DNA from: a candidate division FCPU426 bacterium
GTDB lineage: Bacteria > Oederibacteriota > PGYV01 > Palsa-1178
Direction of reading: 5' to 3'
DNA length: 64,000 nt
NCBI GenBank assembly: GCA_963840035.1
Contig: CAWIXE010000001.1
Span: 544,001 to 608,000 of the forward strand
The position numbers and the translations under genes are program-made. Below are positions 3,865-48,776 of the stretch, piece by piece; the first letter of the stretch is position 1; every line of letters starts with the position of its first letter. The notes beneath the pieces are model-generated. The model had not been told where the DNA came from, searched no databases, and was given only the letters and a program-made list of their open reading frames with translations.

Positions 3865-4060
3865 ATTTCTGCATGATAAAAGGTAAAAAAAATATGAGGG
3901 CAATGGAGAATCCCCATTTATAAAAAGCAAAAAATACATTTATGTGTTATTCACTTGAATAATCCGTAGAACACCCATATTAAAAATTGACAAAATACCT
4001 GTAAAATGATAAAATTAAGATGGACTAAGTGTCTCTATATTTACATTTTTGGAGGTATAT

Positions 4061-4447
4061 ATGAAAGGAATTTTCATTACAGCGGGTATTGTATTGGCGT
4101 TAGCGGGTTATTTTCTCATCGGTTCTGAAAACGTAAGCCAGATGTTGGAAAAATATTCCGTGGAAAAAATGAAGGGGACAGACCTCGAAGACGCAGCAGC
4201 TTTCAACATCAGGTACATGGATTTTACCGGAAAATACGACAGGTGCCTTGAGCTCATAAGCAAATTCAATGAAAGGTACGAGGAAAAATCAAAATATCTT
4301 CCTGAGTTTATGTTAACACAGGCAAGGATACTGGAACTGCGGCTTAAGACCGCCGCTGCCAGGGACATTTACCAGAAATATGTCGATACTTATCCGGACG
4401 CGGCGAATGTTAATGATATAAAATATAAAATCATGGAACTTAAATAA
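4061..4447 (+). CDS. Membrane-anchored small protein with TPR-like C-terminus
   Basis: N-terminal hydrophobic segment; ARDIYQKYVDTYP resembles CpoB/BamD-type TPR; RBS and TTGACA..TAAAAT promoter upstream. Confidence 0.65.
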   Translation: MKGIFITAGIVLALAGYFLIGSENVSQMLEKYSVEKMKGTDLEDAAAFNIRYMDFTGKYDRCLELISKFNERYEEKSKYLPEFMLTQARILELRLKTAAARDIYQKYVDTYPDAANVNDIKYKIMELK

Positions 4448-4468: not shown

Positions 4469-5647
4469 ATGAAGAAAAATTTCTTATTTCCGGCATTATT
4501 AACCATTTCATTATTTATACCCGCCTTTTTATTTGCCGCGGATGAAGCTGCTGCGGCTGCCGAAGCCGCTGCCATTACCGCGTCTCCTGAAGCCACTGCT
4601 GAAGCAACTGCCGCGGCCACTGTTGAAGCTACGGTTGAACCTACTGCCGTATCAACTGTTGAAACCACAGTTGAACCGACCGCCGAAGCCACTGCTGAAG
4701 CAACTGCCGCACCTACGACAATACCCACTGTAACCGAAAAAGTTGAAGTTGATACATCATATAAAGCAGATGATGAAGGCGTGGTTATACTCTCGCCAGG
4801 GGAAACATCCATGGAAGAACTTGAAAAATATATATTAACAAAAAGAAAACCCGCGCAACAGGAAGAAACCGACAACGGCGACGTGACAATGACATTTGAA
4901 CCCGAGTCAGCCGAAGAGGAAAACGGCGGGATCATACTCATGGAAGATGAGAAAAAAGGAAAGATGGAAAGCACGGGATATGTGATGGTTGAGAGGGGCG
5001 GGTTCATATCAGACAACTTCAAGGAAGACGGAATAGTATATTCGCTTGACGGCAGGGAAATACTCGCGGCCGGCGATAACGTATACATAAAGCTCACCGT
5101 GGGTAAAGGCGTTAAAAAAGGGACTGAATTCATAGTCTATGACGACTCGGAATCGGTTATAAACCCCATGACAGACGAAAATATGGGGAAAAAGATAAAG
5201 ATCGTCGCGGTAGGGAAAGTCAGGGGCAGCGCGGACGCCGATGACAACATATGGAAGGCAAAACTCACAAAGACCTACGAACCTGCCGGAAATAATTTTA
5301 AGATTAAGATCAGGAAAGAACTCAAGGATTATTACAACAAGCTTATCACAAAGATAAAGAAAAAACCGCAGCCGCTGGAAGGGTTCATCATAAGCGTAAA
5401 CGGCGGAACCCAGGGCATCAATAACAAGGACGTTGTTTACATAGACAGGGGACTTAAGGACGGGATCGCCCCCGGGGATATCCTGACCGTGGTAAGGCTC
5501 TCCGAGGACAAGGAAACCGGCGCCATGAAAAAATATAACACCATAGGAAAAGTCATGGTCATAAATACCATGAGGAGTTCCTCGGTAGGCATCATAAGCG
5601 GCCAGACTGATGTAATAAAAGTCGGGGACCTGGTAAAGACCAAATAA
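4469..5647 (+). CDS. Exported protein with Ala/Thr/Glu-rich linker and TsaP/FlgT-C-like beta domains
   Basis: Signal peptide; GDNVYIKL..G, INPMTDENMG, VYIDRGLKDGIAPGD, IKVGDLV motifs. Confidence 0.55.
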   Translation: MKKNFLFPALLTISLFIPAFLFAADEAAAAAEAAAITASPEATAEATAAATVEATVEPTAVSTVETTVEPTAEATAEATAAPTTIPTVTEKVEVDTSYKADDEGVVILSPGETSMEELEKYILTKRKPAQQEETDNGDVTMTFEPESAEEENGGIILMEDEKKGKMESTGYVMVERGGFISDNFKEDGIVYSLDGREILAAGDNVYIKLTVGKGVKKGTEFIVYDDSESVINPMTDENMGKKIKIVAVGKVRGSADADDNIWKAKLTKTYEPAGNNFKIKIRKELKDYYNKLITKIKKKPQPLEGFIISVNGGTQGINNKDVVYIDRGLKDGIAPGDILTVVRLSEDKETGAMKKYNTIGKVMVINTMRSSSVGIISGQTDVIKVGDLVKTK

Positions 5648-5705: not shown

Positions 5706-7115
5706 ATGAAATTTGGCAGCAAGAAAAGCGTGCTCATTTTGTGCGGAATATTCGTAACACTTCTTGCCGTAAGTTTTACCAGGATAAACAGCAGTTATAT
5801 TTTCCTGGCAGCGGGCCTGGCCGCCTCGCTCATTTCCTTTAACGGAGGGTGGGTTAACGGGGTTTTCATGTCGCTGCTTTTTAATTTTACTTTTTACTCG
5901 CTCCACACCGCTATGGGCGTCCAGAGCATGGTTTTAAATATAGCGGTTTTTTCAGCTCTTTCTGTGCTTGCGGACAGGCTTAAGATAGGAAGCAATGCTC
6001 CGGTTCAGAAGGATTCAAATCCCGAGGAAAAAGCTTTTGTAAACAAAGTAATAAATTCGTTCATGCTTGGCCATGACATGGTACGCGAGATAAAAAAAGG
6101 GATAACAAGGAGCGAACTGCTCGCTCTATTCGCGCGCAATGTATCAAACTTGACAGGCGCCGACCAGGTGCTGGTTTATACCGGTGAAAACGCCCCGGAA
6201 GGAAAGTTAAAGCTCACGCTCTCCGCGGGAAAATACCAGGAGAGGGTCATAGAGCCTGAAGCTGAAATTGAGAGTGTACTCTGTTTGTCGGAGAAAAACC
6301 TTCCCGCAAATGAAGCCGGATTCATAAAGAGCGTCAGCGACGGGTACGCCATCATAATGCCGGTCAATGAAAAGGGAAAAGCCGGGGACATCGCTGTGCT
6401 TTACAAGGGAAATGAGTTCTCATACAGCGACATATACATAGCCGAATTTTTCAGCGCGCAGATATTTGTCATAATGGAAAAGCAGGAACTCCTTAAAAAG
6501 ATGTCGGGAAATTACGAGCGCATCATAGAAGCCCTCGCCCTGGCCATAGATACCAAGGACCACGAGACGCACGGCCACTCGCTGGCCACCATGAAGTACG
6601 CCGTAAAAATCGCGGAAAAAATGAACCTGCCTGATGAGGAAAGGGAAATGATAAAATACGCCTCCCTCCTGCATGACATAGGAAAGATAAACATAAGCAG
6701 CGCCATACTTAACAAGCCCGACAAGCTTACGGCTGAGGAATTTGACATCATAAAAAAGCACCCGGAAGAGGGCGTGCACATTTTGGACAGGATGGACATA
6801 TTCGGGGAGATACTCCCGCTTGTTATGCACCATCACGAGCATTTTGACGGCAAAGGCTACCCAAAGAAGCTAAAGGGGGACAGCATCCCGCTGGGGTCCA
6901 GAATTTGCTCGATTGCGGACGCGTACTCGGTGATGGTGGCGGACCGCCCCTACAGGAAAGCGCGCACAAGGGATGAGGCCATTAATGAGCTGAAACGCTG
7001 CTCCGGGACGCAGTTTGACAGGCAGATAGTGGATGTCTTCCTCGGGATAATAAAGGAAGAAAACACGCAGGAAGCGGCATTACATAATATTACCGGCGCA
7101 GGGCCGGTAAACTGA
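5706..7115 (+). CDS. Membrane-bound HD-GYP cyclic-dinucleotide phosphodiesterase with GAF-like middle region
   Basis: N-terminal TM helices; THGHS, LHDIGK, HHEHFDGKGYP, ADAY, RPYR, GTQFD. Confidence 0.9.
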   Translation: MKFGSKKSVLILCGIFVTLLAVSFTRINSSYIFLAAGLAASLISFNGGWVNGVFMSLLFNFTFYSLHTAMGVQSMVLNIAVFSALSVLADRLKIGSNAPVQKDSNPEEKAFVNKVINSFMLGHDMVREIKKGITRSELLALFARNVSNLTGADQVLVYTGENAPEGKLKLTLSAGKYQERVIEPEAEIESVLCLSEKNLPANEAGFIKSVSDGYAIIMPVNEKGKAGDIAVLYKGNEFSYSDIYIAEFFSAQIFVIMEKQELLKKMSGNYERIIEALALAIDTKDHETHGHSLATMKYAVKIAEKMNLPDEEREMIKYASLLHDIGKINISSAILNKPDKLTAEEFDIIKKHPEEGVHILDRMDIFGEILPLVMHHHEHFDGKGYPKKLKGDSIPLGSRICSIADAYSVMVADRPYRKARTRDEAINELKRCSGTQFDRQIVDVFLGIIKEENTQEAALHNITGAGPVN

Positions 7116-7918
7116 TGGATGAGTTAACCGCGTTTAATAATATTAAGGCGCTGATATTGAAGGAAAAATTCCTAGATGTCACGCAGTACAAGGAAAATTA
7201 CCTGAAACGAAGGCTGGCGGTGCGGATGAGGGCGCTTAACGCCCACACGTACACCGACTACCTCGCGGTGATGGAAAAAAACAAGAACGAACTGAACATA
7301 CTTTTGGATAAGCTGACGATAAACGTAACGCAGTTCTTCAGGGACCCAGAAGTCTTCGTGGAACTTGAGAATGTCATACTGCCGGAACTTTTAGCCGGCG
7401 GAAAGACCGACTTAAGGGTGTGGAGCGCCGGATGTTCCTCAGGCGAGGAGCCTTACTCGATTGCCATTTCCATAGAGGAGACAGCGGAGCGGCTCGGTTT
7501 GAAAAACCTGAGATATGAGATTTATGCCACGGACTTAGACGATGAAATACTGCGCAGGGCCCTTGAAGGCAAGTACGAAGGCAGGACCCTGGACAACATA
7601 GCGGAGTCACGTAAGAGAAAATATTTTGATTTTGACGGAAAAAAATATTCCGTTACGCAGAGGATACGCAAAAACATCCTGTTTTTTAAGCATAACCTGA
7701 TGGAACCGTACAAAAAGGATTTTTTTAACCTGGTTTTCTGCAGGAATGTCATCATTTATTTTACGAGGGAACTGCAAAAAACGGTGTTACAGCACTATTA
7801 TGATTCCATGAAGGAGGGCGCGGTACTGTACCTGGGAAAGACCGAGACCATGCTCATGGAACACAGGAATAATTTTGAATGTATAAATATTAAGGAAAGG
7901 ATATTCAGGAAAATATAA
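7115..7918 (+). CDS. cheR: Chemoreceptor methyltransferase
   Basis: LTINVTQFFRD, WSAGCSSGEEPYS, FCRNVIIYF. Confidence 0.96.
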   Translation: MDELTAFNNIKALILKEKFLDVTQYKENYLKRRLAVRMRALNAHTYTDYLAVMEKNKNELNILLDKLTINVTQFFRDPEVFVELENVILPELLAGGKTDLRVWSAGCSSGEEPYSIAISIEETAERLGLKNLRYEIYATDLDDEILRRALEGKYEGRTLDNIAESRKRKYFDFDGKKYSVTQRIRKNILFFKHNLMEPYKKDFFNLVFCRNVIIYFTRELQKTVLQHYYDSMKEGAVLYLGKTETMLMEHRNNFECINIKERIFRKI

Positions 7919-9084
7919 TGGACACAGTACAGGACCACATAAATCTCGGGCTGGCCTTTGCCATGAGCAAGCGCTATGACCAGGCCATAAAAGAATTTGA
8001 AAAGGCCCTCAGCATAAACGCTGACGACGCAGAGGTACTAAAGCACCTGGCTAACGCCTACGTTTATAAAGGCGAATATGACCAGGCCATAAACTCATAT
8101 GAAAAAGCCCTCAAGATCAATCCCATGAACGCCGAGGTAATAATGAAACTCGGAAAATTATACGCGAACATGGCCAATTTTGACAAGGCTCTGGTGCAGT
8201 ATAAAAAAGGGCTTGAGATCAACTCTACAGACTCAGCCTTAAGGCACGCGCTGGCAGACCTGTACGTGAAGATGGGAAAAAACGCCGAGGCCGAGGCCGA
8301 GTACAGGAAGATGATAGAAAAGGAACCGGCTAATATGGAGCTTATTTTCAAGCTCGGCTATATATTTGAATCCGAGAAAAAATACGCCGAAGCAGCGGTG
8401 GAATACGAGAAAGTCGTAAAGGCAAACCCTAAAAGCCCCGGCATTAATTCCATGCTTGGAAATGTTTACAGGGAATTAAAGCAGTTTGACAAGGCCATAG
8501 AGCATTATGACAAGGCCGTTAAGATAAATCCCAGGGATACCGCTGTGGCTTTTAACCTGGGGGTCCTGTATTTTGAAAGCGGGCAGAACGAAAAGGCCAT
8601 AACGCAGCTGGAGATAGCCAAGAAAAACAAGTTTAAAAATTCGGAAATATTCATAATCCTTGGGGAAGTGTACTCCAGGCTCGGCAGAAAAAAAGAAGCG
8701 CTTGAGGAATATAAAAAGGTAGCCGAGCTCGGGAGCGCGGACGCGGAAACGCATAAAGCCCTCGGGTTCATATACATGGAAGAGGACCAGCTCGACGACG
8801 CCCTCGCCGAATACAAAAAGGCCATGGAAACAAAATCAGACGACCCCGCGATATATGAGAATATGGGGCAGATATACTATAAAAAAATAATGTATAAGGA
8901 AGCGAAGGAATATTTCTCAAAGGCCATAGAGGCCGGCAGGGAAAGCGCGGACATGTTCTACAAGCTGGGGAACATATATATGAAGGAATCCAACCCGGAA
9001 AAGGCCAAGGAAAACTGGAACAAGTCGCTTAAGATATACCCGGAGAACGAGATAATAAAAAAGAATCTGAAACTGCTCGGCTGA
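7918..9084 (+). CDS. Tetratricopeptide-repeat protein
   Basis: About 11 tandem 34-aa TPR units. Confidence 0.9.
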   Translation: MDTVQDHINLGLAFAMSKRYDQAIKEFEKALSINADDAEVLKHLANAYVYKGEYDQAINSYEKALKINPMNAEVIMKLGKLYANMANFDKALVQYKKGLEINSTDSALRHALADLYVKMGKNAEAEAEYRKMIEKEPANMELIFKLGYIFESEKKYAEAAVEYEKVVKANPKSPGINSMLGNVYRELKQFDKAIEHYDKAVKINPRDTAVAFNLGVLYFESGQNEKAITQLEIAKKNKFKNSEIFIILGEVYSRLGRKKEALEEYKKVAELGSADAETHKALGFIYMEEDQLDDALAEYKKAMETKSDDPAIYENMGQIYYKKIMYKEAKEYFSKAIEAGRESADMFYKLGNIYMKESNPEKAKENWNKSLKIYPENEIIKKNLKLLG

Positions 9085-9120
9085 GTTTAAAGTCAGGTTT
9101 TAAATTGCAGGGGGAAATGA

Positions 9121-9720
9121 ATGGAACTTTATAAAAAACAGGACAAGAGTTTGGGCGAACTCCTAATACAGGCGGGATTTATAACAAACGAGCAGCTGAA
9201 AGAATGCCTGCTGGAACAGCACTCGACAGGCGAGCCCCTGGGGAAAATCCTCATATCAAAGCATTATGTCAGGGAAGAGAACATCATAAACGTCTTAAAG
9301 GGTATGCTCGTGGTGGTGGTCGAGGTTAATAATGAAAAATTCGGAATAGAGATCATATACGCCAGGGAAATTATAAAATACAAAAAAATATCCGCCCTTC
9401 CGAACCTGCCGGACTACATCCTGGGCATGATGTCGCTTCGGGAGGATGTCATCCCGGTAGTCAGCCTTAATAAGAAAATTTTCAACAGGGAAGACGCCAT
9501 AACAGAAAACTCAAAGATAATAATTATAGACGGCAAAAAGGACCTGATGGGTGTTTTAGTGGATGAAGTCATAAACGTAAAGAATTACCAGTCGTCGGAT
9601 TTTGCCAATATCACAAAATACACCTTTACCATAGACAGAAAATACATCGCCGGGCTGATAAAGGACGGCGACGGGGTAATAACCCTAATAAAGCCGGAAA
9701 TCCTTTTTGAAGGCAGGTAA
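9121..9720 (+). CDS. CheW-like protein with N-terminal MshEN-like domain
   Basis: LGELLIQAGFITNEQLKECLLEQ..PLGKILI followed by CheW fold (FGIEI..AREII, LPNLPDYILGMMSLREDVIPVV, GVLVDEV). Confidence 0.82.
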   Translation: MELYKKQDKSLGELLIQAGFITNEQLKECLLEQHSTGEPLGKILISKHYVREENIINVLKGMLVVVVEVNNEKFGIEIIYAREIIKYKKISALPNLPDYILGMMSLREDVIPVVSLNKKIFNREDAITENSKIIIIDGKKDLMGVLVDEVINVKNYQSSDFANITKYTFTIDRKYIAGLIKDGDGVITLIKPEILFEGR

Positions 9721-20126: not shown

Positions 20127-22250
20127 ATGGCCGTTTTCGCTTTAGACATAGGAACCCGCAAGGTAGCCGGCATATTAGGCGAGCTTCGCGGAGAGAGAGT
20201 GCACATCATAGATGCCGTTTTAATGGAGCATGAAAAACGCGCCATGATAGACGGGCAGATACACTCCATAGAGGGCGTCACAGACATTGTGCGCAAAATA
20301 AAGAACGAGCTTGAAATGCGCAACGGCATTATAATTGAAAAGGTCACAACAGCGCTCGCGGGCAGGAGCCTTCATACGGAAAAGACGGATGTTATCATAG
20401 AAAAAAAGGGCGATGTCACGAAGGAAGACCTGGCTTACCTGGAGATGTTAAGCGTAAAGCAGGCAAATGAAAAGCTGACCGGCCAGAAAAAACTTGATTA
20501 TTACTGCGTGGGTTATTCCACGGTTTCATTCTCCGTCGACGGCGAGGTAATGAAGTCCCCGCTGCAGCAGCTGGCAAAAAGGTCGCTTGGCATTTCCACC
20601 ATAGTTACATTCCTTCCCAAACCGGTATTTGACTCCATGGTCACGGTCTTAAACAACTGCGGCCTGGTCATAGACGCGATAACGCTTGAGCCAATAGCGG
20701 CGTTATCAGTCACAATCCCGGAGGACATGAGGCTTTTAAACCTCGCGCTTGTGGACGTGGGCGCGGGAACATCGGACATCGCGATAACTGACAAGGGTAA
20801 AATAACAGCGTATGGCATGATACCAAAAGCAGGGGACGAGATAACTGAAGCGATCTGCCATGAATTCCTGGTGGATTTTAACACGGCGGAAAAAGTAAAG
20901 AGGAAAGCTGAAAGCCCGGAAGAAGCCGGGGCTAAAGACATATTTAATAACCCTGTGATTGTTACCGCGGAAAAATTCCGCGAGGCGGTATTTGCAAAGA
21001 CAGAAGAAGTGGCCAAAGATGTTGCAGACGGAATTTTAATGTTAAACGGAAAACAGCCGCAGGCGGTTGTCATGGTAGGCGGCGGAAGTTCGCTTATGCT
21101 TTTACGCGAGCGCGTGGCCGCGAATTTAAGCCTGCCGGTGGGCAGGGTCGGCGCGAGGACCCCGGAGACCATTACAAACATAGAAAACCTGCCTGACGTG
21201 TTAAAGGGCACTGAAGGAATAACCCCCCTTGGCATACTCGAGACCGCGCTTTTCAAAAGGGGCATAGGATTTGTGGATGTCACTGTAAACGGCGAAAAAG
21301 AATACGTCATAAACCTCGACCAGGAGATAAAAGTCGTGGACGTGCTGGCGTCGCGCGGCATGGAAATGAAGAGGCTTTACGGAAAACCCGGAAACTCGCT
21401 TACCTTTACATTTAACGGAGAGCTTAAGATACTGCGCGGGAGCCACGGCGAACACGCGAAAATATATGTCAACAACGACGAGAGACAGCTTGAAGACAGG
21501 GTATATAAAGGCGACGCCATATTCATAACGTCGGCAAAAGACGGCGCTTCAGCCTCGGCCATAATAAGGGACATCATAGGCGAACACTACGTCACAGTAG
21601 TTGAGATAAACGGCAAGAAACACGAGATAGCGCCGCTGGTCCTGCGCGAAGGCAGGGAAGTCACAATAGACGAGCCTTTAACGGACAGGGCGGATATTAC
21701 AGCGGAGAGGATAGACATGGCCGCGGACGTGCTTGCAAGGGCCGGCTATGAGATAAAGGCGTCGAACGAGCGCGACATCATAATAACAGTCAACGGCGAA
21801 CCGCAGGTTTTAAAGCAGAGGAACTACCAGCTGAAGGTAAACGGCGTAGAAGTCGCGGCCGATTATAAGCTGCGCAACATGGACAGGGTGGAATACAAGG
21901 ACACGCCGGCGTATTACAGGGTAAAAGACGTGCTGAAAACCTCGCGCAAGCACAAGATAAGCGTCATCATAAACGGCAAGCCTTTTGAGATGGAACAGGA
22001 AAATTCCGGAATATTCATGAACGGAAAGAAAGTCTCGGAGGACGAGTTCCTCATTAACGGCGCCTCCATAGACATAAAATCAAACGAAGAAAAAATGATA
22101 CTATCCTCGGTATTTAAGTTCTACCCCATAGACACGCAGAGAATCAAAGGAAGGCTCCTGGAGCTGAAGGTTAACGGCGAAAAAGCCGGCTACACCACCC
22201 AGATAACCGAAGGCGCAAACATAGAAATAAACTTCACAGACGCGGTATAA
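20127..22250 (+). CDS. FtsA/PilM-like actin-fold ATPase with long repetitive C-terminal extension
   Basis: ALDIGTRKV, LEPIAA, LVDVGAGTSD, VMVGGGS; C-terminal repeats of (V/I)NG(E/K).. Confidence 0.8.
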   Translation: MAVFALDIGTRKVAGILGELRGERVHIIDAVLMEHEKRAMIDGQIHSIEGVTDIVRKIKNELEMRNGIIIEKVTTALAGRSLHTEKTDVIIEKKGDVTKEDLAYLEMLSVKQANEKLTGQKKLDYYCVGYSTVSFSVDGEVMKSPLQQLAKRSLGISTIVTFLPKPVFDSMVTVLNNCGLVIDAITLEPIAALSVTIPEDMRLLNLALVDVGAGTSDIAITDKGKITAYGMIPKAGDEITEAICHEFLVDFNTAEKVKRKAESPEEAGAKDIFNNPVIVTAEKFREAVFAKTEEVAKDVADGILMLNGKQPQAVVMVGGGSSLMLLRERVAANLSLPVGRVGARTPETITNIENLPDVLKGTEGITPLGILETALFKRGIGFVDVTVNGEKEYVINLDQEIKVVDVLASRGMEMKRLYGKPGNSLTFTFNGELKILRGSHGEHAKIYVNNDERQLEDRVYKGDAIFITSAKDGASASAIIRDIIGEHYVTVVEINGKKHEIAPLVLREGREVTIDEPLTDRADITAERIDMAADVLARAGYEIKASNERDIIITVNGEPQVLKQRNYQLKVNGVEVAADYKLRNMDRVEYKDTPAYYRVKDVLKTSRKHKISVIINGKPFEMEQENSGIFMNGKKVSEDEFLINGASIDIKSNEEKMILSSVFKFYPIDTQRIKGRLLELKVNGEKAGYTTQITEGANIEINFTDAV

Positions 22251-29592: not shown

Positions 29593-32500
29593 TTGTCTTT
29601 TAAAGCATTATCAGTAAAGGCATTTAAAAGAGCTGGTTTGATATTTGCCATGATTTTTATTATGGCTATATTTACTAATGCGGCAACAATAATATTACCT
29701 GCTACCGGTCTAATGTCCGGGGAAACCACGGATCCGAACTGGCAAAACCCCGCCGGCATAAGCGCGCCGGATTATCAATACGCTTCAGCCACAGCCAAGG
29801 ACCAGAAGCTTTATACAGCTTTTAACCAGATGCCATTGAACGGCGTGATAATTAACTCCATAACACTGCACGTCATGCACGTAACCGAGGGGACAATAAC
29901 CCCCGGGGATACAATGCAATTAAATTATTCTTTTGATAACGGCTCCAGCTGGCATTCTGCAACAACACTTCTGTCAAACATCATGGAAAATTCCGCTGTC
30001 GGCATTGACATATCTGAATTTGACCCGTGTGATGAAACCAGGGTTAATTCATTCGGGCTTGACATATCGCCTGTCAGCGATACTTTTGACCGTTTTATGA
30101 TTGATTATACATATCTGCTTGTCGATTACACCGTGCCTTCGCAGACAGTCACTTTTACCCCGAGTTTTACAGCCACCCATACAGACACTCCGTCGGCTAC
30201 GGAAACAACAACCGAAACCGCGACACAGACAGCTACGGAAACAGCGACACAGACAGCAACGGAAACGGAGACCTGCACAATAACACAAACCATTACGAAA
30301 ACACAGACAGAAACAGCGACGCAGACAATCACTCAGACCGCGACTGTTACTTATACATCCACGCCTGAGGTGCAGGCATACATTGAGCCGAAATCCGCGG
30401 TCATGGGGGATACGGTAATATATACATACCGCGTGATTGCGCGGGGCAACGGGGCCATAAATAGCCTGCTTATCACGGCGCCGGGAGTTGCCATGACAGG
30501 CGTAGTGAGCTCAAGGGGAGGGGCCATATCCTATCCGGGAGTAAACGTACAGGTTACATACGGCACCGCATGGAACACATTAAGCGACCCGAATTTTGAC
30601 GTGATAACATTTACAGGAGTAATAACAACTGCAGGCACAAAGACATTTACCGGCCTTATAAACGGCGGATTTTTATCCACGGTTCCGTCAGGGTATACAA
30701 ACCAGGTCAGCGTGTCATCCCCAACATTTACAGTAACCTGTACTGTAACACCCACAGACACGCAGACTATAACCGCCACAGATACGCAGACTTTGACGCA
30801 GACACAGACGCAAACTATAACGCAGACGGCAACAGAGACCGCGACTCAAAGCGTCACTCAGACAAAAACACAGACAGCGACACAGACCGCAACAGAAACC
30901 GTGACGCAGACAGATACGAAAACCGCGACGCAGACACTTACGCAGACCATAACGCAGACAGACACGCCGACCATGACGCAAACAGCCACGCCCAGCGTGA
31001 CGGTGACGTATACATCCACTCCGGAGGCGCAGGCATATATACAGCCTGAAACGGCAATAATGGGGGATACGGTAACATATACATACCGGGTAATTGCGCG
31101 GGGCAACGGGGCCATAAACAGCCTGCTCATCATGGCTCCGGATGTCACAATGGCCGGCGCAGTGAGCGCGAACGGCGGCGTCATAACACAGCCCGGCGGG
31201 AACATACAGGTAAATTACGGGACCGCGTGGAATTCATCAAGCGACCCGAATTTTGACGTGATAACATTTACGGGGGTAATAACAGTAACAGGCGCAAAGA
31301 CATTTACAGGGCTGATAAACGGCGGGTATTCATGCACGGTACCGGCCGGGTATACAAATCAGGTAAGTGTGGCGTCGCCGACATTTACTGCAACAAGGAC
31401 GGCAACGCAGACTGTAACACAGACAATAACACAAACCCCTACGCAGACATGCACACAAACAATTACACAGACCGCGACTCAGACCAACACTCAGACCGCG
31501 ACACAAACCGCGACACAGACGATAACGGAGACTGCGACGCAGACCATAACAGCCACAGTAACACAAACCGCGACGCAGACCGGGACACAGACCATAACGG
31601 AAACCGCGACGCAGACCATAACAAGTACAGCAACACAGTCAGCCACGCAGACTGTAACGAAGACTGCAACCGGAACCGTGACACAGACAGCAACGCAGAC
31701 AATATCACAGACAGCCACGCAGTCCATAACGGAAACCATCACCCAGACCGCGACGCAGACTGTTACGGGAACAGTGACGCAGACAATCACGCAGACAGCG
31801 ACGCAAACTGCCTCTCCCACATGCACACCGACATCATACCTTTCAGTTTCCATAGGCCCGGCAAATCCGGCGTCAGCAAATTACATGTTTGACGAGGCAA
31901 ACGCCGTCTCCATGCAGATAAGGCTTTCGGCAAATAACGGGAATGTTGGGGTTGGAAGAATAGCATTTGTATCATCAGGGTCGCTCGTGGATTATACTGA
32001 GATAACAACTGCAAGGCTTTATATTGACAGCGGTACTACGCCGGGAGTGCTGGACGGGTCCGACGTACAGGTGGGAGATAATGAGCCGTTTGTCATGTTC
32101 GTTGTCGGGGATGGCAGGGTGGTTTTTGAAAAATCACCGCTTCTTTTCGGGGTAAGCCCGGGCACGCCAGTGGACCTTATACTTGTGGTAAGCCTGAATT
32201 CAATCGGCGGAAAAAACTTCAGGGACGCGACTACGGCCGCGGACATAAACGCTTTTGACCAGGCTTTCCTGCCGGTGGTTGTATCCGGTTCGGCAACAGG
32301 CAATTTCCATAATGTCATAGCACCGACCATGACAGTAACCCAGACATTTACGCCGAGCGCCACACAGACTGTGACGCAGACGGCTACGCAGACCATAACG
32401 GAGATATTTACAAAGTCAGTAACACAAACGGTGACGCCGACAGGAACGTCAACAATAACTCAGACTATTACCGAGACCGTAACGCAGACAGCCACTCAGA

Positions 32501-35169
32501 CAATAACGCAGACCGCCACTCAGACGGCCACCGAAACAGTGACTCAGACAGCAACGCAGTCAGCAACACAGAGCGTAACTGAGACGGTTACGCAAACAGC
32601 GACGCAGACAGCCACTCAGACAATAACGCAGACAGTCACACAGACAGTAACCGGGACAATAACACAGACTGTAACGCAGACAATAACGCGGACAGTGACG
32701 CAGACTGTGACACAGACTGTAACTGAAACAGCGACGCAGACAGCGACGCAAACCGCAACGCAGACCATAACGCAAACCGCGACTCAGACGGCAACACAGT
32801 CAGTGACCCAGACAATAACACAGACAATGACGCAGACAGCAACACAGTCAGTAACTGAAACAATTACACAGACTGCTACACAGACCGCCACACAGACTGT
32901 CACCCGGACCGCGACCGAAACCGTGACACAGACGGTGACCAAGACCGTGACTGAAACTGTCACACAGACAGTAACACAGACTGCCACGCCGACTGTCACT
33001 CAGACCGCGACCCAGACCGTGACGCCTACGACCGTATCCACGCCGGCGGCATACGCTTACATACAGCCTGAAATTGCGGTCAGCGGCGACAGGACAGTGT
33101 ATTCATATAAGGTAATATCGTACGGCAACGGAATGATAGACAGCCTGTTAATCGACGTGCCGCCGGGAGTGACGCTTAATAACACCCCTTCCACATCAAT
33201 GCCGGGCACGACAGTGTCAACCCCGTCGGGAGACATACTTGTTAATTACTCCACCCCGTGGAATGTTTTCTCAGGACAGGATTTTGACATCATAACATTT
33301 GACGCCACATCATCTTCAGGGGATAAATATTACGGGAGCACTTTAAACGGGCTTGTTGACGCGCGCGGCCTGACGCTTGGCGGACGCACGCAGATAGTGG
33401 CCATATCCACCCCGACATTTACCATAACAGCCACCGCAACCCCGACTTTTACCGCGACGCAGACCATAACACAGACTGTTACACAGACGGCCACTCAAAC
33501 AGCCTCGCAGACAATCACTCAGACCATAACGCAAACCGCGACGCAAACCGCCACACAGACAATAACACAGACAGCCACGCAGACCGGGACGCAGACGGCA
33601 ACGCAGACCGGCACACAGACAATAACGCAGACGGCCACGCAGACGATAACGCAGACCGCCACACAGACAATTACACGGACTATAACGCAGACAGCGACAC
33701 AGACAGCAACGCAGACAGGGACACAGACACAGACGCAGACTGTGACACAGACCGCGACTCAGACCGGGACGCCTACATATACGGTAACAGCCACTTCAAC
33801 GCCGACATTTACAGTCACGGTGACTTCAACATTTACATATACCGTGACGCAGACCGGGACGCCGACATCTACGGCCACGCAGACAGCCACACCAACCGGC
33901 ACGTTTACAATGACGGTGACGCCTACCTTTACAGAAACAAAAACGGCAACACCCACAAACACCGCGACCCCGTCAAATACGCCCACATTTACCGTCACTA
34001 TGACTTTCACTCAGACGGCTACACCGACAATGACCGCTACCACAACTGCCACTCCGACAAATACTCCGGTATTCAGGATGATGGCGCTGGCGCCGGGAGA
34101 GACTCCGCTTGCGTCAGCACCGGGGTATACGGGCACGCCGCTTACGCAGGAAGCGGGAAAACTTGTGACCATCACTGTCAGGGCTTATGACGATGTGTTA
34201 TTTAATCAGATAAATGTTTCAAACCTTATAACCATATCCTCATCGCAGAACGCCTGGACCGTACTGGATCAGGATAAAAATATGGCGGCAGGTGAGGCGC
34301 AGTTTTATGTAAGGTTCTTAAGGCCGGGTATTTATACCATTACAGCAAGGGACTTAAACGGCGAGTTTGCGGACGCTCCGACAAACTTAATACCGGTAAT
34401 AGTTACAGGCTTCGGCAATAACGCGCTTGTATCAAGGCTCATTTATAATGTTCAGACAGCCGTTAAAGGCGAAAAGAACGCGAGGGTGATGGATTTCACA
34501 GTCACAAACCCGAACTCCGGAGGGGCCCCGTACAGGCTAACAGGAGTTACCCTTACGGTATCCACGGCAGTTAATTCCGCCATAGAGCGCATAGTCATCA
34601 GGGACGGGACAAACACACAGATAAACCAGGTACCATGGGGCGCGGTAAAGCAGGTTTTTGTGCCTGTTAACATTTTAATAGACCCGCTGGCAAGCCAGAC
34701 CATATCCATAAACCTTGACATTTTAAACAGCGCGCCGGACGGGGCTTTCAGCGTTTCAATCGTGTCAGCCGCCAATGTGCTTGTGGAAAAGCTCGACGAC
34801 ACGAGGCAGTTTGTGGAAAGCTCGACAGGCACATTCCCGTACACAACCACGTCAATAAACGTCACGTCAGGCGACCTGACATCAAGCTTCTATAACTACC
34901 CCAATCCGTTCAAAGCCGGCTCGGAGCAGACCCTGATACAGTACTTCCTGGATAAGGACTCAAAAGTATCGCTTAAGATATATGACTTAACCAGCAGAAA
35001 AGTAAAAACCATAACAGAGTCGCAGCAGCAGACAGGCGGCATGATGTACAGGTTAAGCTGGGACGGAAGAAACGACGAGAACAAGCTGGTCTTAAACGGG
35101 GTATATTACGCGGTGATTAAAATAGACGGCGGCAAGCAGTACCATACGAAGATAATAGTGGTAAAATAA
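29593..35169 (+). CDS. Giant secreted Thr-rich (TQTx)n surface protein with repeated Ig-like modules and FlgD-Ig/YPNP C-terminal domain
   Basis: Signal peptide; long TQTATQTI arrays; three related ~115-aa modules; NYPNPF..LKIYDL..WDGRND..GVYY C-terminus. Confidence 0.8.
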
Positions 35170-36865: not shown

Positions 36866-37203
36866 GGGGGCGACCGGATTCGACAGGTCTCGCGTAGATG
36901 TAAGGAGCATGCCAGTGCCCATGTCACTGTATAAACGTGGAACACGTAACTGCAAACGATTACGCTTTAGCAGCATAAGCTGCACCTCTTCTACTTCTTT
37001 TGCCTGCGGGATATAGAAGGGGACCAACAGCAGGCCGCTCAGTTAAGCGTTCTCCTTGCTTAGCTGCTAAGACTAAGGGAGAGTAGCGCCGGGTGATTGT
37101 GTCCGGTCAAGCAAACGGCGCGAAACCAAATACCGGAACAAGCATGTAGCCGCCTTTATCGAAACAGGTCTGGACGTGGGTTCAAGTCCCACCGCCTCCA
37201 CCA
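36866..37203 (+). ncRNA. ssrA: tmRNA; tag peptide ANDYALAA* (36952-36978)
   Basis: 5' GGGGGCGACCGGATTCGAC, tag GCA AAC GAT TAC GCT TTA GCA GCA TAA, 3' GTGGGTTCAAGTCCCACCGCCTCCACCA; close to smpB. Confidence 0.96.
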
Positions 37204-38694
37204 ATTATTGTTTTTCATTTTATAGAGAAATGAAAAATGATTTTTTACCGAAAAAGAAAGAGTTTTATTGGTAATCAAAGAGTTCAATAGTAGGATTTTC
37301 AAAAAATCACCCTGTTGAGCGAAAGTAAGAGTTTTATATCGATAAATAAAGAGATTCACGAGTTCAATAGTAAAAAGTGCTTTGTCGAGAGAACGACCCG
37401 AAAAACCCTTCCTCGCGTCAACCAACTGGGCCTCAACGTTCCTTATGAGGCCCATATACTCGGCGTTCTTTTCTTTCCAGAACGCCTCGTCAATCCTGCG
37501 GTCCGCCCGGTCGTCGTAAAGAGTGGAAACCCGACCAGTCAAAATTTTCTTTTCATTTTCCAACCGCGATATTGTCTGAGCGGAAATCTCATTGTCATTA
37601 CTGGCAGCGTTGGTCAGATGCTGCTTGATTGACTTTATGGCCTCGGCTGGCAAGTGTAACGGCGCAATTTGAGTGTGGAACAGTTTAGACATTTCCTCTG
37701 GTGAGATATAACAGTTCTTATGCTTACCCCTACCAAGAGTGCAATGATATCTTTCATACTTTCCCTTCTTATAAAACGTTCCAATAACCGAACACCCACA
37801 GAGCCCACATTTCAAAATACCGTTGAATGGAAACTTTACACAGCGTTCTTTTTGTTTGCGCGGGAAAACACCATAAGAGTCCTGTGCTTTTTGCCACAGG
37901 TCTCTTGAAACCAGAGGTTTGTGCGCGCCTTTATAGAACCCACCGTTCCAATTAAACTCGCCATAATAAAACGGGTCGCGTAATAACTTTGCCATTCTGG
38001 ACCTAACAACTCTCATGTTCCCTGGAAACTTAGTACCCAACTTGCGAGACCTCAAACCCTTTTGGTAGAGTATCTCTACTATCTCGTCTATGGTTTTATA
38101 CTTGGCCTTTAACTCAAAAGCCATTTTAACAAGCGGTCCACGGACAGGGTCGATATCAAGGACCTTTGTGACAGAGTTGTTAAGATAACCCAGCGGTGCT
38201 ATAGCCGGGAACTGGCCTTTCTCTACCGTAGAGTCCATACCTTTGCGGATACGTTTGGAAAGGTCGGCCGAATATTTTTCAGCCATTAAGACCTCTATCC
38301 CGAACATAAAAAATTCATCACTATCGGAATACTTATGTAGTTTCTTGTTAGTTCGGGCGAAATGAACCGTAACGCCGTCGTGTCGTATCAGTTTGCGAAC
38401 TCTGATTTTATCATCCTCATTTCTGGTCATTCTATCCGGGACATCAAAGACAAGGTGTTTGATTTTATTTTTTGCAACGTAGTCCAACATCTCTACAAAG
38501 TTCTTACGAACCCGGTCGCCGTCGTCCTTGCTGTCGTTTTTCCAAGCCGATTCAGGCCCGCGCCACAACTTTACTATTTCCAAACCGTTCAAATCCGCGT
38601 AATGCCTACCTGTTTTTTCTTGTGAGTCCATGCTTGTGTTGTCCTGTTGTTCCTCTGAAGAAACCCGGACATATAAAACCGCCAATTCTTTCAT
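37156..38694 (-). CDS. Large serine recombinase (integrase)
   Basis: LYVRVSSEEQ catalytic motif, DRMTR, APLGY recombinase domain, CGLCG..YHC Zn ribbon, coiled coil. Confidence 0.93.
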   Translation of the reverse strand: MKELAVLYVRVSSEEQQDNTSMDSQEKTGRHYADLNGLEIVKLWRGPESAWKNDSKDDGDRVRKNFVEMLDYVAKNKIKHLVFDVPDRMTRNEDDKIRVRKLIRHDGVTVHFARTNKKLHKYSDSDEFFMFGIEVLMAEKYSADLSKRIRKGMDSTVEKGQFPAIAPLGYLNNSVTKVLDIDPVRGPLVKMAFELKAKYKTIDEIVEILYQKGLRSRKLGTKFPGNMRVVRSRMAKLLRDPFYYGEFNWNGGFYKGAHKPLVSRDLWQKAQDSYGVFPRKQKERCVKFPFNGILKCGLCGCSVIGTFYKKGKYERYHCTLGRGKHKNCYISPEEMSKLFHTQIAPLHLPAEAIKSIKQHLTNAASNDNEISAQTISRLENEKKILTGRVSTLYDDRADRRIDEAFWKEKNAEYMGLIRNVEAQLVDARKGFSGRSLDKALFTIELVNLFIYRYKTLTFAQQGDFLKILLLNSLITNKTLSFSVKNHFSFLYKMKNNNWWRRWDLNPRPDLFR

Positions 38695-38850
38695 GACACA
38701 CCACCGTAAAAAGATTTGTTGTGGACTCTAACGCGTGAGTGATTTTAAGTCAAGAAATACCAATTTAGACCAAATTAATTAGTTTTTGTCTATTTTTGTT
38801 TTTGCGTAAATAATTGTTGACAAGCGGTATTTCCATGATATATTTGCGCT

Positions 38851-39068
38851 GGCAGAAAGAAATTAAGTCGCGCTTTGTTTGTGGGGTTCGCAAGCCCACA
38901 GTATGGGCGACACCCAGCCACGCGGGATATGCGCTCCGGGCTGATTAACTCATGAAGTCAGTAGACGGATTCACGAGTTTAAATCAGTGCAAGGAGCAGC
39001 GCAAATGCCCAGAAATCCGAACATCAATAACCCCTGCGTTATAGGTCTGTCCGTAATTACTGTTTGCC
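38851..39068 (+). ncRNA. Candidate structured RNA (~218 nt) of unknown class
   Basis: TTGACA (38817)..TATATT promoter; 5' GGCAGAAAGAAATTA pairs with 3' TAATTACTGTTTGCC; several nested internal stems. Confidence 0.5.
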
Positions 39069-39222
39069 TGCTCACTCATCTTATGTTCTGCAACGTGAAA
39101 CCAATCTTAAAATATTTTTAATTTAAGGTCATAAATCTGCTTATGTTTTTATATTTACAGAAGAGATAGGAACGGAAAGGACAGGAGTTCGAAGGCATGT
39201 CGTGCCGAAAAAGGAGTAGTAA

Positions 39223-40611
39223 ATGGTCAATCAAAACAACGCAAATGACAAGAATCAGAGGCCTGGTGGGACACCATTAAGTCCGATACACGGACAATGC
39301 TCCATCCCAAACGACAACCATGCCTCTGATATTTTTTTATCCCCTAAACAATACTATCGAGTATCAGTTGAAATTGCTCAATGGGCACATTCCGCTAATA
39401 TTAAATCTGCCAACCATAAAGGACAACACAAGTACGGAATCGCCGATTCTCTGGTTTACTCTGTGTTATTTGAAAGGTTTTGTTTCTATTTTAGTCAAGA
39501 CCAGTTAAAAGATGGTTGGTTCTACCAAAGTATCAGACAATTATCCAAAGCCACAGGTTTGTCTTTAAAACGAGTGCATATAGCATTGCGGTTACTTTCG
39601 AGGCATCAAGGTAATTGTATTGAGGTTAGAAAAGGCAATGCAAGTGTTGGAGAAGCAAATTGGTATAAAATTGTCAACGCCGAACTTGAACCAAGATATA
39701 CAAAAACGATAGGTTCAAAATGCAAAAATATGAATTATAAAAAAACATGCAATTACTGCTCGTATTTTATTGAATGTCAAAAAAAGAAACTTTTGATATA
39801 TATTCCCGGGAATAAAATCTTTGCACCCATAAGAAACAAATACATAACTATCCCCCCACGCATTGTAAAGACCCTTGGTATTAATGCTGCAGCGATTTAT
39901 GGAGTATTAAAAGGACAGCAAATAACAAACTTAAAGAAAAGCAAACATGATGCCCAAAAATCCATTTCTAAATTGTCCAATTTGCTTATGTTAAAACCCG
40001 ACACGGTAATAAGCAACCTAAAGAAACTTGAAAGTAAAGGACTTATAGTTATCAGCAGAAAAATGCGTGGTAATTGTAATACTTACAAAACAAACCCAAT
40101 AAACAAAGTTATACCTGTTTCCAAATCCAACGACGCCACCCCTATTCAGCCACAGCCCTGTTCCAATATGGATACAGGTTTAGTACATGGGACTACCCCC
40201 ATTCAGCCACGGGGTAGTCCCATTCAGAAACATATAATAAATAAAACAAGTAAATATACAGACAGTAAGACATTAAATACACATATAGAAATAGTTAAAT
40301 GCGGCCAAGAAGAAATGGCCGCATGTGAAGATATATTTCTTTTTGAAGAACAAAACCAAAAACCCTCAATATGTGAAGTGTCTTGTTTTGATAAGTGTAA
40401 CTCTAATGAAGGAAGTGTTTTTGGAAATGGGTTTGGTGGTTATGGATGGACCATTGCGAAGTTACGTAGCGAAGGCATGGCGGATGCCGATATCAAGTCA
40501 TTGGTTGCGGAACAACAGCAGCAGTTACAATTCGGGATAGTGCATGACTTGGTGCGTATTTTTTCTATGTCTTACGCATGTCCCAGAGAGGAGGTGGAAA
40601 ACGACAAGTAA
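39223..40611 (+). CDS. Replication-initiator-like protein with two winged-HTH regions and a Cys cluster
   Basis: GWFYQSIRQLSKATGLS..V..AL..L and SISKLSNLLMLKPDTVISNLKKLESKGLI; CxxxxxxxxCxxC between them; AAGGAG RBS. Confidence 0.6.
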   Translation: MVNQNNANDKNQRPGGTPLSPIHGQCSIPNDNHASDIFLSPKQYYRVSVEIAQWAHSANIKSANHKGQHKYGIADSLVYSVLFERFCFYFSQDQLKDGWFYQSIRQLSKATGLSLKRVHIALRLLSRHQGNCIEVRKGNASVGEANWYKIVNAELEPRYTKTIGSKCKNMNYKKTCNYCSYFIECQKKKLLIYIPGNKIFAPIRNKYITIPPRIVKTLGINAAAIYGVLKGQQITNLKKSKHDAQKSISKLSNLLMLKPDTVISNLKKLESKGLIVISRKMRGNCNTYKTNPINKVIPVSKSNDATPIQPQPCSNMDTGLVHGTTPIQPRGSPIQKHIINKTSKYTDSKTLNTHIEIVKCGQEEMAACEDIFLFEEQNQKPSICEVSCFDKCNSNEGSVFGNGFGGYGWTIAKLRSEGMADADIKSLVAEQQQQLQFGIVHDLVRIFSMSYACPREEVENDK

Positions 40612-40654
40612 AAGAAATGTACTTTGATTAACTCTACGGAGAAAGGAGTCAGTT

Positions 40655-40849
40655 ATGCGCAATAGAACGGAATGGAAAGACCCGGATGAGGTTATGTTCG
40701 GGGAGTACATAGACCCGGACGAACGTAAGTTCGAGGTCTGGCACGGCCCAGAGGAAGCCGCGGTGGCCCACTGGATTAAAACGATAGAAGAACGCAGGAA
40801 AACACCCGGATACCAGAATCTACAAGGAGGAAAAAAATGGGAAGAGTAA
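40655..40849 (+). CDS. Small hypothetical protein
   Basis: AAGGAG RBS; overlaps the next gene's start. Confidence 0.55.
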   Translation: MRNRTEWKDPDEVMFGEYIDPDERKFEVWHGPEEAAVAHWIKTIEERRKTPGYQNLQGGKKWEE

Positions 40850-41382
40850 AACAATGGGTAATAGAAATGCAAGAGTGTGGATACATAGGTGAAAAACTTA
40901 CTGTTCCAGGATACGAGGGAAAGAAAACAAAATTCAGGAGGCCAACAATGGTTGACTTTAAAGAAGAGGTTTTTGATTTAAGCATGAAGCAGATAGAAGA
41001 TGGCGATTTCAACAAAAAAGTCGAGGCAACTGCGACACTAAGCAGAGACGACCATCGGTATTGGAAAGAAGTACTTTATCAAAACGCAAGGACCGGGTAC
41101 TACTACCTTGTAGTAGAAGGCGGATGCATATCACCTTGGGGACAGATGATAGAAAACCCTTCCAATATAGTTTATTGGACCAGCATGGGCAAATTGTACA
41201 TTGAAGGAAAAAAAGGCGAGGAAAAAGTATACGCGCCATGCCAGAGGATATACACTCTCGTTGGCCAAGAGGAAGAAGCCCTTTGGATTAAAAAAGTAGA
41301 AACAGAAGAAAAAATGGGTATATGTAAAATCGAGAGATTTACCCAAGAAAAAAAGATTGAGTCCATTCCATACGTTGGGTAG
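40837..41382 (+). CDS. Hypothetical protein (paralog of 41437-41895)
   Basis: AGGAGG RBS; YWKEVLYQNARTGYYYLVVEGGCISPW motif. Confidence 0.7.
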   Translation: MGRVKQWVIEMQECGYIGEKLTVPGYEGKKTKFRRPTMVDFKEEVFDLSMKQIEDGDFNKKVEATATLSRDDHRYWKEVLYQNARTGYYYLVVEGGCISPWGQMIENPSNIVYWTSMGKLYIEGKKGEEKVYAPCQRIYTLVGQEEEALWIKKVETEEKMGICKIERFTQEKKIESIPYVG

Positions 41383-41436
41383 TAAATGCTTTAATCAAGA
41401 CAGGTTGAGAGCAAACACTCTTGCCTATACTAAAAC

Positions 41437-41895
41437 ATGAGGAGAAAAATAATGTTTGATTATGGAAACGAAATGTTCAACTTAACGGCAAGTGACTTAA
41501 GGAAAAGACCGTTCCTTAAGGTATGTGGATTCAAGGCAACTATTAAGCGCAACGAAGAAGAATACTGGGAAGAAACTCTTTATTGGAATGAATCCACAAA
41601 GAAACACTACATTGTGGGCTCAGGTGGTTATAATTCACCATGGATGGAAGTGGCTGATACTCCAACAAAAATTCTATATTGGAACAAGCATGGTAGATTA
41701 CACATTGATAGAACAATGTTGGTTGAGTACGGATGGTGCCCAGGCAGGCGGATATATCAAGTTACAACAGATGAAATGAAGCAGTGGCGTCAGGAAAACG
41801 TAAAAAAGATAGGTGATGGAACATGTAGGATTAGCGTTGTAAGGAGAACGAAGTCCAGCAGACCAGTCAAAACTAAAACTAAAAGTAAAAAGTAA
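41437..41895 (+). CDS. Hypothetical protein (paralog of 40837-41382)
   Basis: YWEETLYWNESTKKHYIVGSGGYNSPW motif. Confidence 0.7.
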   Translation: MRRKIMFDYGNEMFNLTASDLRKRPFLKVCGFKATIKRNEEEYWEETLYWNESTKKHYIVGSGGYNSPWMEVADTPTKILYWNKHGRLHIDRTMLVEYGWCPGRRIYQVTTDEMKQWRQENVKKIGDGTCRISVVRRTKSSRPVKTKTKSKK

Positions 41896-41946
41896 TTTAG
41901 TTGTGCTGACGATTAAGTGCGGAGGGATATATTCCCCAATAATCAC

Positions 41947-42132
41947 TTAATGAACTTTTGGTGACTTGCTAATGCGCGGCGAAGGGTCTGACACAATGAC
42001 TTGTGAGTGGTTCTGGTAACGGCGTAGACCGTCTGGTTGTACATATTCCTCTATCCAATACTGTTTCTTGTAGCCGGGCATTTCGAGAGTAACGACGCAG
42101 CCCTTGAAAGCATTAGGTTTATTTTTATCCAT
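41947..42132 (-). CDS. Small hypothetical protein
   Basis: AAGGAG RBS on the minus strand. Confidence 0.5.
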   Translation of the reverse strand: MDKNKPNAFKGCVVTLEMPGYKKQYWIEEYVQPDGLRRYQNHSQVIVSDPSPRISKSPKVH

Positions 42133-42298
42133 TTTTTAACTCCTTGAATTTTGTCGGTCTTTACTGATACCGCAATAGACCGTTTGCGTCAATATCTTTC
42201 CCTTTCCTGCCCACGTACGACCCCGTTGTTACGAGCGGAATCGGGCCTATTTTGAGCCATGTCGCAGAGCCCCCTGACCTTACCCACCCCTGATTAAA

Positions 42299-42862: not shown

Positions 42863-43057
42863 TTTCCCCTCCGCGATTCGTGTGTGTTTGGGCTTGGGAT
42901 TTTGGTCATGCCCACCAACACCTTGAAATATCAACCGATACTACTTAATGTTAGTAAATACCTTTTTATAGCCAAGTTTGAACCCGTTTTGTATGGATAA
43001 AATACAATAAAGGTGCTAAAATTACTCAATCAATATTTCTAAAATATAGGTGGTGTT

Positions 43058-44167: not shown

Positions 44168-44185
44168 TAATAAAAGGGGTAAAAA

Positions 44186-45154: not shown

Positions 45155-45258
45155 AATTAGGCAACATTATCCTAGCCGTCAATTATCATAACTGCTAACC
45201 CATTGAAATAGGTTGACATTTTACCTCTGGAAATTCAACGAAAGAGGAGGTAAAATAT

Positions 45259-47904: not shown

Positions 47905-47907
47905 AAA

Positions 47908-48447: not shown

Positions 48448-48531
48448 TCGGTAAGGGCCTTTACTGGTTTTAATACTTGCCTTTGCAATTAAAGGTGCTA
48501 AAATGGGTTAAATTAATCAGGGAGGTTTATA

Positions 48532-48753: not shown

Positions 48754-48776
48754 TTTTGAATTATAAAGGGTGAACA

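Follow-up and report, generated by a model that had tools for sequence, protein, structure and literature searches.

A gene at positions 9121-9720 on the forward strand of the window (the 64,000-nucleotide stretch of a candidate division FCPU426 genome analyzed here) encodes a 199-residue protein that joins an MshEN_N-type module to a CheW domain, as indicated by the open reading frame call, profile searches, a predicted model and structure overlay. We propose, at a probability of roughly 0.4, that this fusion is the second CheW of the only che cluster in the genome, and that within the array it binds c-di-GMP in a remodeled pocket, changing the drive that receptors exert on CheA. Direct gating of the CheA kinase by c-di-GMP via the fusion is put forward with the same caution, and direct control of receptor-kinase coupling, as suggested in an earlier note on this DNA, is one of several outputs that fit.

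Architecture and spread of the fusion

The coding sequence is preceded by a Shine-Dalgarno-like GGGGG at 9110-9114, 6 nt 5' of the ATG; this, the motifs and domains of the gene, and the che cluster with its upstream neighbors all lie on the forward strand. Two 24-residue motifs, motif I at residues 10-33 (9148-9219) and motif II at residues 39-62 (9235-9306), are split by a five-residue spacer (residues 34-38). The NCBIfam model NF053729, describing an MshE-related c-di-GMP motif, matches residues 11-60 with 61.5 bits (cut-off 38), and matches 51/51 members of the fusion homologue alignment A1 at E<=0.001. Pfam CheW (PF01584) covers residues 64-196 (9310-9708) with 92.3 bits (cut-off 23.5). 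The profile check proposed in the earlier note was therefore positive for these two models and negative for Pfam MshEN/T2SSE_N, to which the protein had no match at E<=0.1, a result that we read as absence of the C-terminal subdomain. Profiles and model both indicate that the C-terminal alpha/beta subdomain of a full MshEN/T2SSE_N domain is missing, and that CheW begins right behind helix 4.

A search of solved structures related the N-terminal part to GSPII-B of Thermus thermophilus PilF and to Vibrio cholerae MshE, and the remainder to CheW. The AlphaFold2 model built from the 51-sequence alignment (mean pLDDT 85.9) contains helices at residues 11-17, 23-36, 40-46 and 52-60, followed directly by a strand at 62-69 that is the first CheW strand, and refolding residues 1-63 from the single sequence gave the same helix boundaries. 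Residues 8-60 of the model superpose on residues 7-59 of MshE (5HTL) at 0.9 Å (Z 9.5, 53 residues, 38% identity), so that residue numbers in the fusion equal those of MshE plus one, and residues 60-199 overlay the CheW structure 2QDL with Z 20. The tandem-motif pattern matches 2 of the genome's 14,961 open reading frames and none in 20 shuffles of all of them. These results bear out the view that the N-terminal ~60 residues form a tandem MshEN pattern fused directly to CheW; the junction has no linker, and its length is identical in 85/85 homologues. Two further details of the same reading also stood, namely that the leading Arg of each motif is replaced (Ser10 and Pro39) and that the second repeat is degenerate. 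Motif I keeps Leu11, Gly12, Leu26, Leu30 and Gln33, and motif II keeps Leu40, Gly41, Ile55 and Leu59, while its final Gln has become Met62, after an invariant Gly61, and its turn Gly has become His48. The latter change is peculiar to this copy, with Gly present in most homologues.

In the CheW half, Glu83, Gly102 and Arg107, the equivalents of E. coli Glu38, Gly57 and Arg62, are found in 84, 85 and 85 of the 85 homologues, respectively. The CheW Glu38-Arg62 salt bridge has been described as aligning the receptor and kinase sites (PMC3828127). Because these three residues are nearly invariant, the fusion likely joins the receptor-kinase array through its CheW domain. Gly63, described as absolutely conserved in F1 and F7 CheW (PMC3828127), is Glu108 here; the position holds Gly in 10/85 homologues, being replaced in most of those from the same order, and in 96/115 mostly distant homologues among the matches listed. 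The domain shares with CheW of E. coli, Thermotoga and Thermoanaerobacter (2HO9, 2CH4, 2QDL) the fold (Z 15-20), the Glu38-Arg62 pair, Gly57 and a place in a che operon, but differs from them in its extra 60-residue N-terminal module, in the replacement of Gly63 and in coexisting with a plain CheW.

Within the phylum, a full-length fusion was found in 40 of the 61 related genomes searched, whose homologues are labeled Goldbacteria/FCPU426. Carriers comprised 22 of 24 genomes of the order (this one included) and 18 of the 37 from other parts of the phylum; G042 was counted although its match ends at position 165, and because related genomes are not independent, these counts are descriptions and not statistics. 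CheA is present in 39 of the 40 fusion genomes, and five genomes have CheA without the fusion. A word-seeded search gave 53 matches, 51 of them full-length, the other 50 being 50-73% identical to this copy; the few named full-length homologues are labeled Goldbacteria or Goldiibacteriota, with one from Spirochaetia. A profile of distant members returned 212 matches, and among the 120 listed, 115 new ones cover the module. In the ESM Atlas the two nearest clusters were from Goldiibacteriota and FCPU426, followed by plain CheW. When a profile was searched against 1.84 billion representatives, the best 150 of 37,444 matches were nearly all multi-CheW proteins, four being this fusion (one a fragment), so that independent fusions in other phyla are neither shown nor excluded by that search.

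The putative ligand pocket and a possible mechanism

c-di-GMP binding by MshE depends on a pair of Leu triads, the backbone amides of two Gly, a pair of Gln and two Arg that make stacking contacts (PMC5013675). Nine of the 12 ligand-contact positions are kept together in 84/85 aligned homologues of the fusion. Gly12 and Gly41 correspond to MshE Gly11 and Gly40, and the triads Leu11/Ile55/Leu59 and Leu26/Leu30/Leu40 to L10/L54/L58 and L25/L29/L39. Gly12, Leu30 and Gly41 are invariant in the 85 homologues and Gln33 is present in 84; Gly12, Gly41 and Gln33 each recur in 114/115 further homologues among the matches listed. Both Gly and Gln33 are thus nearly invariant despite an overall identity of ~30%, and the known role of a Gln at the latter position is contact with the ligand backbone (PMC5013675). 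Across 36 non-redundant sequences (<70% identity), the 12 contacts had a mean entropy of 0.53 bits, as against 1.63 for the remainder of the module and 1.97 for CheW. Conservation is also higher in the module than in the CheW half when this copy is set against 19 distant homologues (49% vs 27% identity). In MshE, Gly and Leu changes caused a 10- to 72-fold loss or abolished binding, and the costliest of the substituted positions (G11L, not detectable; G40I, 72-fold; L10A, 36-fold; L39A, 38-fold; PMC5013675 Supp. Table 1) are among those kept in the fusion homologues. The predicted fold also resembles that of binders. In both fusion models helix 1 begins at residue 11 and lacks the additional turn by which PilF GSPII-A is blocked (PMC12002112), and the AlphaFold2 model lies closer to 5HTL and to PilF-B (0.8-1.5 Å, 46-48% identity) than to the non-binding module of Xanthomonas citri PilB (1.7 Å, 14% identity).

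Three contacts of MshE have been lost throughout the family. Arg or Lys occurs at position 10 in 0/85 homologues, the residue being nearly always Ser or Thr, and at position 39 in 4/85, where Pro predominates; Gln occurs at position 62 in 0/85, the residue there always being hydrophobic. The fusion therefore has neither the Arg (or Lys/Leu) at each motif start nor the terminal Gln of both motifs that characterize MshEN domains, whereas this genome's three PilB-like MshEN modules retain the terminal Gln. A relaxed pattern permits Pro at a motif start but not Ser, and in MshE a change of Arg9 costs at most 5-fold and Q61A 11.8-fold (PMC5013675). Lys or Leu can take the place of the leading Arg, and one of the motifs in PilF GSPII-C, which does bind, opens with Pro (PMC11731258). 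A Ser at the motif start removed the residual binding of a weakened PilF GSPII-A construct, and the full GSPII-A domain remained non-binding with its consensus restored; even a perfect motif can be blocked by its structural surroundings alone (PMC12002112). If nothing compensates, multiplying the published penalties gives an estimated affinity of ~5-30 µM, roughly at or above the cellular c-di-GMP range of 0.05-10 µM (PMC5013675). In the homologues, position 13 is mostly Glu, beside Ser/Thr10. We take Ser10 and Glu13 to resemble a helix capping box, which could occupy the amides needed by the guanine.

The pocket is flanked by invariants specific to this family: Gln7 and Lys/Arg9 (the N-terminal Gln7-x-Lys/Arg9 at 9139-9147), Lys/Arg42 and Gly61. 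Gln7 occurs in 85/85 homologues and in 113/115 further ones among the matches listed, and Lys/Arg9 in 85/85. The presence of such invariants beside a preserved pocket core suggests that the pocket was remodeled rather than decayed. Judged from the sequences, the module would on balance be expected to bind c-di-GMP, probably with an affinity in the low-micromolar range. Sensing of c-di-GMP by the fusion appears plausible in that it keeps the residues without which MshE no longer binds, and GGDEF proteins occur in 61/61 genomes searched.

In the mechanism that we propose, the fusion would enter the array through its CheW domain, alongside the plain CheW. The two Leu triads, the two Gly amides and Gln33 would carry most of a low-micromolar binding, and the invariant Gln7, Lys/Arg9 and Lys/Arg42 may substitute for the Arg and Gln contacts that have been lost. 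Helix 4 holds Ile55 and Leu59 of the second guanine site and continues via Gly61 into the first CheW strand, so that a bound ligand would fix the interdomain angle. Ligand-dependent fixing of the domains is favored by the constant spacing between helix 4 and the strand in all 85 homologues, together with the placement of Ile55 and Leu59 on that helix. A fixed angle would in turn alter baseplate packing and CheA activation, and the system would be retuned, most likely damped, at high c-di-GMP. The fusion would respond to the general c-di-GMP pool and not to one dedicated phosphodiesterase, and the output would probably not be an ordinary flagellar filament. A broader and more doubtful version holds that c-di-GMP has been wired into the baseplate across the phylum by a dedicated coupling protein, whose re-engineered MshEN pocket would use an N-terminal Gln and Lys in place of the canonical Arg/Gln contacts. 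Ligand bound where helix 4 meets strand 1 would then switch the coupling of receptors to the kinase, in a PII- and TPR-containing system driving pili or a flagellin-less basal body instead of swimming.

Gene neighborhood and alternative explanations

The gene preceding the fusion always encodes a TPR protein, and the surrounding che cluster includes a plain CheW as well. According to profiles and locus comparison, the cluster in the window is accompanied upstream by a small membrane-anchored TPR-like protein that travels with it (4049-4447), an exported protein with weak FlgT_C similarity below cut-off, found upstream in most loci (4469-5647), and a predicted membrane-anchored HD-GYP phosphodiesterase with intact motifs (5706-7115). 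CheR (7115-7918) and TPR protein 1 (388 aa; 7918-9084) precede the fusion, and TPR protein 2 (734 aa; 9723-11927) and a PII-family protein (11947-12285) follow it. Then come CheY (recognized by sequence inspection), CheC and CheD (12413-13888); an MCP, the plain CheW (15168-15662), a second CheY and CheB (13902-17073); CheA, the only one in the genome, and a second CheC (17225-19958); and a 707-aa FtsA/PilM-like actin-fold protein closing the cluster (20127-22250). This last protein has a long C-terminal extension and is last in the cluster in most loci. The PII-family protein has C-terminal nucleotide-binding segments that look canonical and a divergent T-loop that, in this copy, lacks what we take to be the uridylylated Tyr; through this protein the chemosensory system could be informed of energy or nitrogen status.

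We compared 28 loci with their flanks, namely this one and 27 of the 39 other fusion loci. The PII gene is present in 27/28, and the typical continuation after it is cheY-cheC-cheD-(mcp)-cheW-cheY-cheB-(cheA-cheC-ftsA-like). The genome as a whole contains a single CheA, two CheW-domain proteins that stand alone, five MCP-domain matches and four NF053729 matches, the latter being the fusion and three PilB-like ATPases. In G028, G034, G045, G054 and G058 (loci L046-L049 and L067) the cluster ends at cheB, with cheA and MCP genes elsewhere; persistence of the fusion without a kinase was rejected on the presence of CheA elsewhere in these five genomes. In G013 the cluster is broken immediately after the fusion. 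Profile matches of the cluster's CheC, CheD and CheA fall below equivalog cut-offs. The F1-type chemosensory class of Firmicutes, Thermotogae and archaea, a candidate class for this system, would combine CheC and CheD with 44-heptad receptors and with best CheA, CheC and CheD matches to Thermotogae or archaeal models.

The best surviving alternative, possible but in our view rather unlikely, is that a module derived from PilB-type proteins binds no c-di-GMP at all and acts as a ligand-blind tether, docking a partner such as the flanking TPR proteins, the pilus ATPase or a polar landmark, and positioning or nucleating arrays in the manner of Vibrio ParP. Such a role would fit the family-wide loss of both Arg and one Gln and the fixed capping-type Ser, as well as the adjacency of the TPR proteins, TPR protein 1 directly upstream of the fusion in 28/28 loci and TPR protein 2 directly downstream in 23/28. 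There is precedent for MshEN-fold modules that do not bind c-di-GMP, in PilF GSPII-A (PMC12002112) and X. citri PilB ND0 (PMC8389850), and ParP itself combines an array-integrating domain with an N-terminal docking domain (PMC5706961). However, known non-binders lose the Gly and Gln positions, as in XpsE with G11V, G40L and Q61V (PMC5013675), whereas Gly12, Gly41 and Gln33 are nearly invariant here.

We regard as improbable a second alternative, in which the module binds the ligand and thereby recruits or releases a TPR scaffold, CheR or the pilus motor, so that the location of the array is switched and not the activation of CheA. The conservation of the pocket serves this explanation as well as it does kinase gating, and the order CheR-TPR1-fusion is kept in the 26/26 loci with coverage. 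In addition, 10/14 loci from elsewhere in the phylum have a gene for a PilT-TPR ATPase three genes ahead of cheR, and four fusion carriers that are 96-100% complete (G028, G045, G050 and G054) have no FliG or flagellin but do have PilT, MCPs and CheA. However, the PilT-TPR gene is unlinked to the cluster in 11/11 same-order loci (here at C1:1131612) and persists in genomes without a che cluster, in G030 directly followed by dprA-topA, so that its adjacency may be ancestral gene order and the pilus link is circumstantial. The eight genomes examined for PilT-TPR without the cluster were chosen for having the gene, and show only that this arrangement is possible; even so, a tight link between PilT-TPR and the cluster was weakened by them as a candidate. 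The protein itself, in which a PilT ATPase is extended at its C-terminus by a long TPR region (~760 aa; C1:1131612-1133876 of this genome, G000; L070), is widespread in the phylum.

It is very improbable that the remodeled pocket prefers another nucleotide (pGpG, 3'3'-cGAMP or a half-site guanine nucleotide), since both guanine-selecting Gly and both Leu triads are kept, GGDEF proteins are present in every genome searched and no precedent was found in the literature searched, although the substitutions are fixed and asymmetric (Gln33 kept, Gln62 lost, Gln7 new) and MshEN binds cGAMP weakly (PMC5013675).

As regards the source of the signal in the kinase-gating model, the earlier note had cast the HD-GYP protein three genes upstream of the fusion as its local eraser. 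The gene is indeed there with its motifs intact, and its one-base overlap with cheR suggests that the two are probably co-expressed here. The dedicated role was not supported: an HD-GYP gene occupies this place in 8/11 same-order loci and in 0/14 loci elsewhere in the phylum that have upstream coverage, and the genome contains nine HD-GYP-motif open reading frames along with 12 GGDEF proteins. A family-wide eraser was rejected on these locus counts, which make the gene a later, dispensable insertion. That some carriers might be devoid of c-di-GMP synthesis, which would refute binding, was likewise rejected on the universal presence of GGDEF proteins. Five genomes (G024, G034, G052, G054 and G058) carry a GGDEF gene ~9-12 kb ahead of the fusion, and in G058 cheB is followed at a short distance by an HD-GYP gene.

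Possible output, related systems and other features of the window

In this genome (3 contigs, 98% completeness) we recognized flgK and genes for the hook-basal body, export, motor and switch, for the most part by eye and against the cluster of a relative; a genome search gave no match to flagellin, FlgL, FliD or FliS. The N-terminal segment of this genome's FliM resembles what we take to be a CheY-binding peptide. Strongly scoring FliG was found in 43/61 genomes and Flagellin_N in 9/61, seven of them fusion carriers. Because most fusion carriers have no flagellin, the output is probably not ordinary swimming, and the carriers with CheA, MCPs and PilT but without any FliG show the cluster to be independent of a filament; pili or another output would be more likely, the FliM segment notwithstanding.

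The apparently filament-less flagellar system (C2:~1038000-1071000 and C2:396167-404577; L068), comprising basal body, hook, export gate, MotAB and switch together with FlgK, FlgM-like and sigma-28 genes, may be more surprising than the fusion. It is also present in genomes without CheA, including the single-contig G027. A second FliG occurs in G003, G005, G007, G018 and G042, and in G003 a further cluster, complete and with flagellin, is inserted separately at a site where none is present here. An flgH-like gene (C2:398782-399392) seems to be split into two frames, by either a true break or an assembly error.

CheV is an accessory array protein that carries a C-terminal receiver domain, not an MshEN module, and MapZ acts on CheR1. 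The fusion has the same 24-residue tandem motifs, five-residue spacer and four-helix fold (0.8-1.5 Å) as MshE (5HTL) and PilF GSPII-B/-C (8PDK), and it keeps their two Gly, their first Gln and the two hydrophobic triads. Unlike those proteins, it has no C-terminal subdomain or ATPase, is joined to CheW, carries Ser, Pro and Met as the equivalents of Arg9, Arg38 and Gln61, and has a new invariant Gln7 and Gly61. MshEN_N modules on core chemotaxis proteins are known from the MshEN_N-CheA of Aeromonas veronii (EKB11881) and the (MshEN_N)2-CheX of Geobacter (PMC5013675 Supp. Tables 4, 6). In those cases the module belongs either to the kinase, ahead of P3, or to a phosphatase, whereas here it precedes the first strand of a stand-alone coupling protein. 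Although its motif is degenerate, with four changes, the A. veronii MshEN_N-CheA fragment has an affinity of 2.6 µM for c-di-GMP (PMC5013675), and because MshEN_N inside CheA has already been shown to bind, the idea of c-di-GMP input at this level is less new than was implied in the earlier note. Supp. Table 4 of that 2016 paper lists MshEN_N in CheA and on CheX and not on CheW, its main text does not mention CheW, and its supplement does so once, inside a CheA architecture (PMC5013675). Vibrio ParP is likewise an accessory array-integrating protein whose added domain serves as an anchor or second input, but its added part binds ParC and contains no nucleotide-binding MshEN module (PMC5706961). 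Elsewhere c-di-GMP reaches chemotaxis through the PilZ proteins MapZ (PMC6370697), Cbp1 (PMC6454048) and PlzC (PMC12799141), in which the PilZ domain is on an adaptor or receptor, compared with an MshEN module on the coupling protein here. Our literature search (MshEN with CheW or chemotaxis, and Goldbacteria motility), with subscription journals and bioRxiv supplements outside its reach, found no paper on MshEN-CheW.

If both binding and the effect on CheA hold true, a second messenger would act on the coupling protein itself, a case that we did not find in the literature searched; the known inputs found there act on receptors, adaptors, CheX or CheA. The MshEN recognition code would then extend to Ser/Pro motif starts without the second Gln, which would affect binder and non-binder calls for thousands of degenerate MshEN domains. 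Should it fail to bind, the fusion would be a novel accessory protein of the array, comparable to ParP. Because the protein is small (199 residues) and soluble, and its partners are all encoded in one operon, the question is directly testable.

Elsewhere in the window, reading by eye suggests an integrated element beside smpB at ~36900-49800, with a serine recombinase at 37156-38694 on the reverse strand, a cytosine methyltransferase and a neighboring possible restriction enzyme at 43058-45154, and transposase-like genes at 45259-47904. Large Thr-rich secreted proteins, likewise recognized by eye, are encoded at 29593-35169 and 51377-54745, one of them with a glycoside-hydrolase-like N-terminus.
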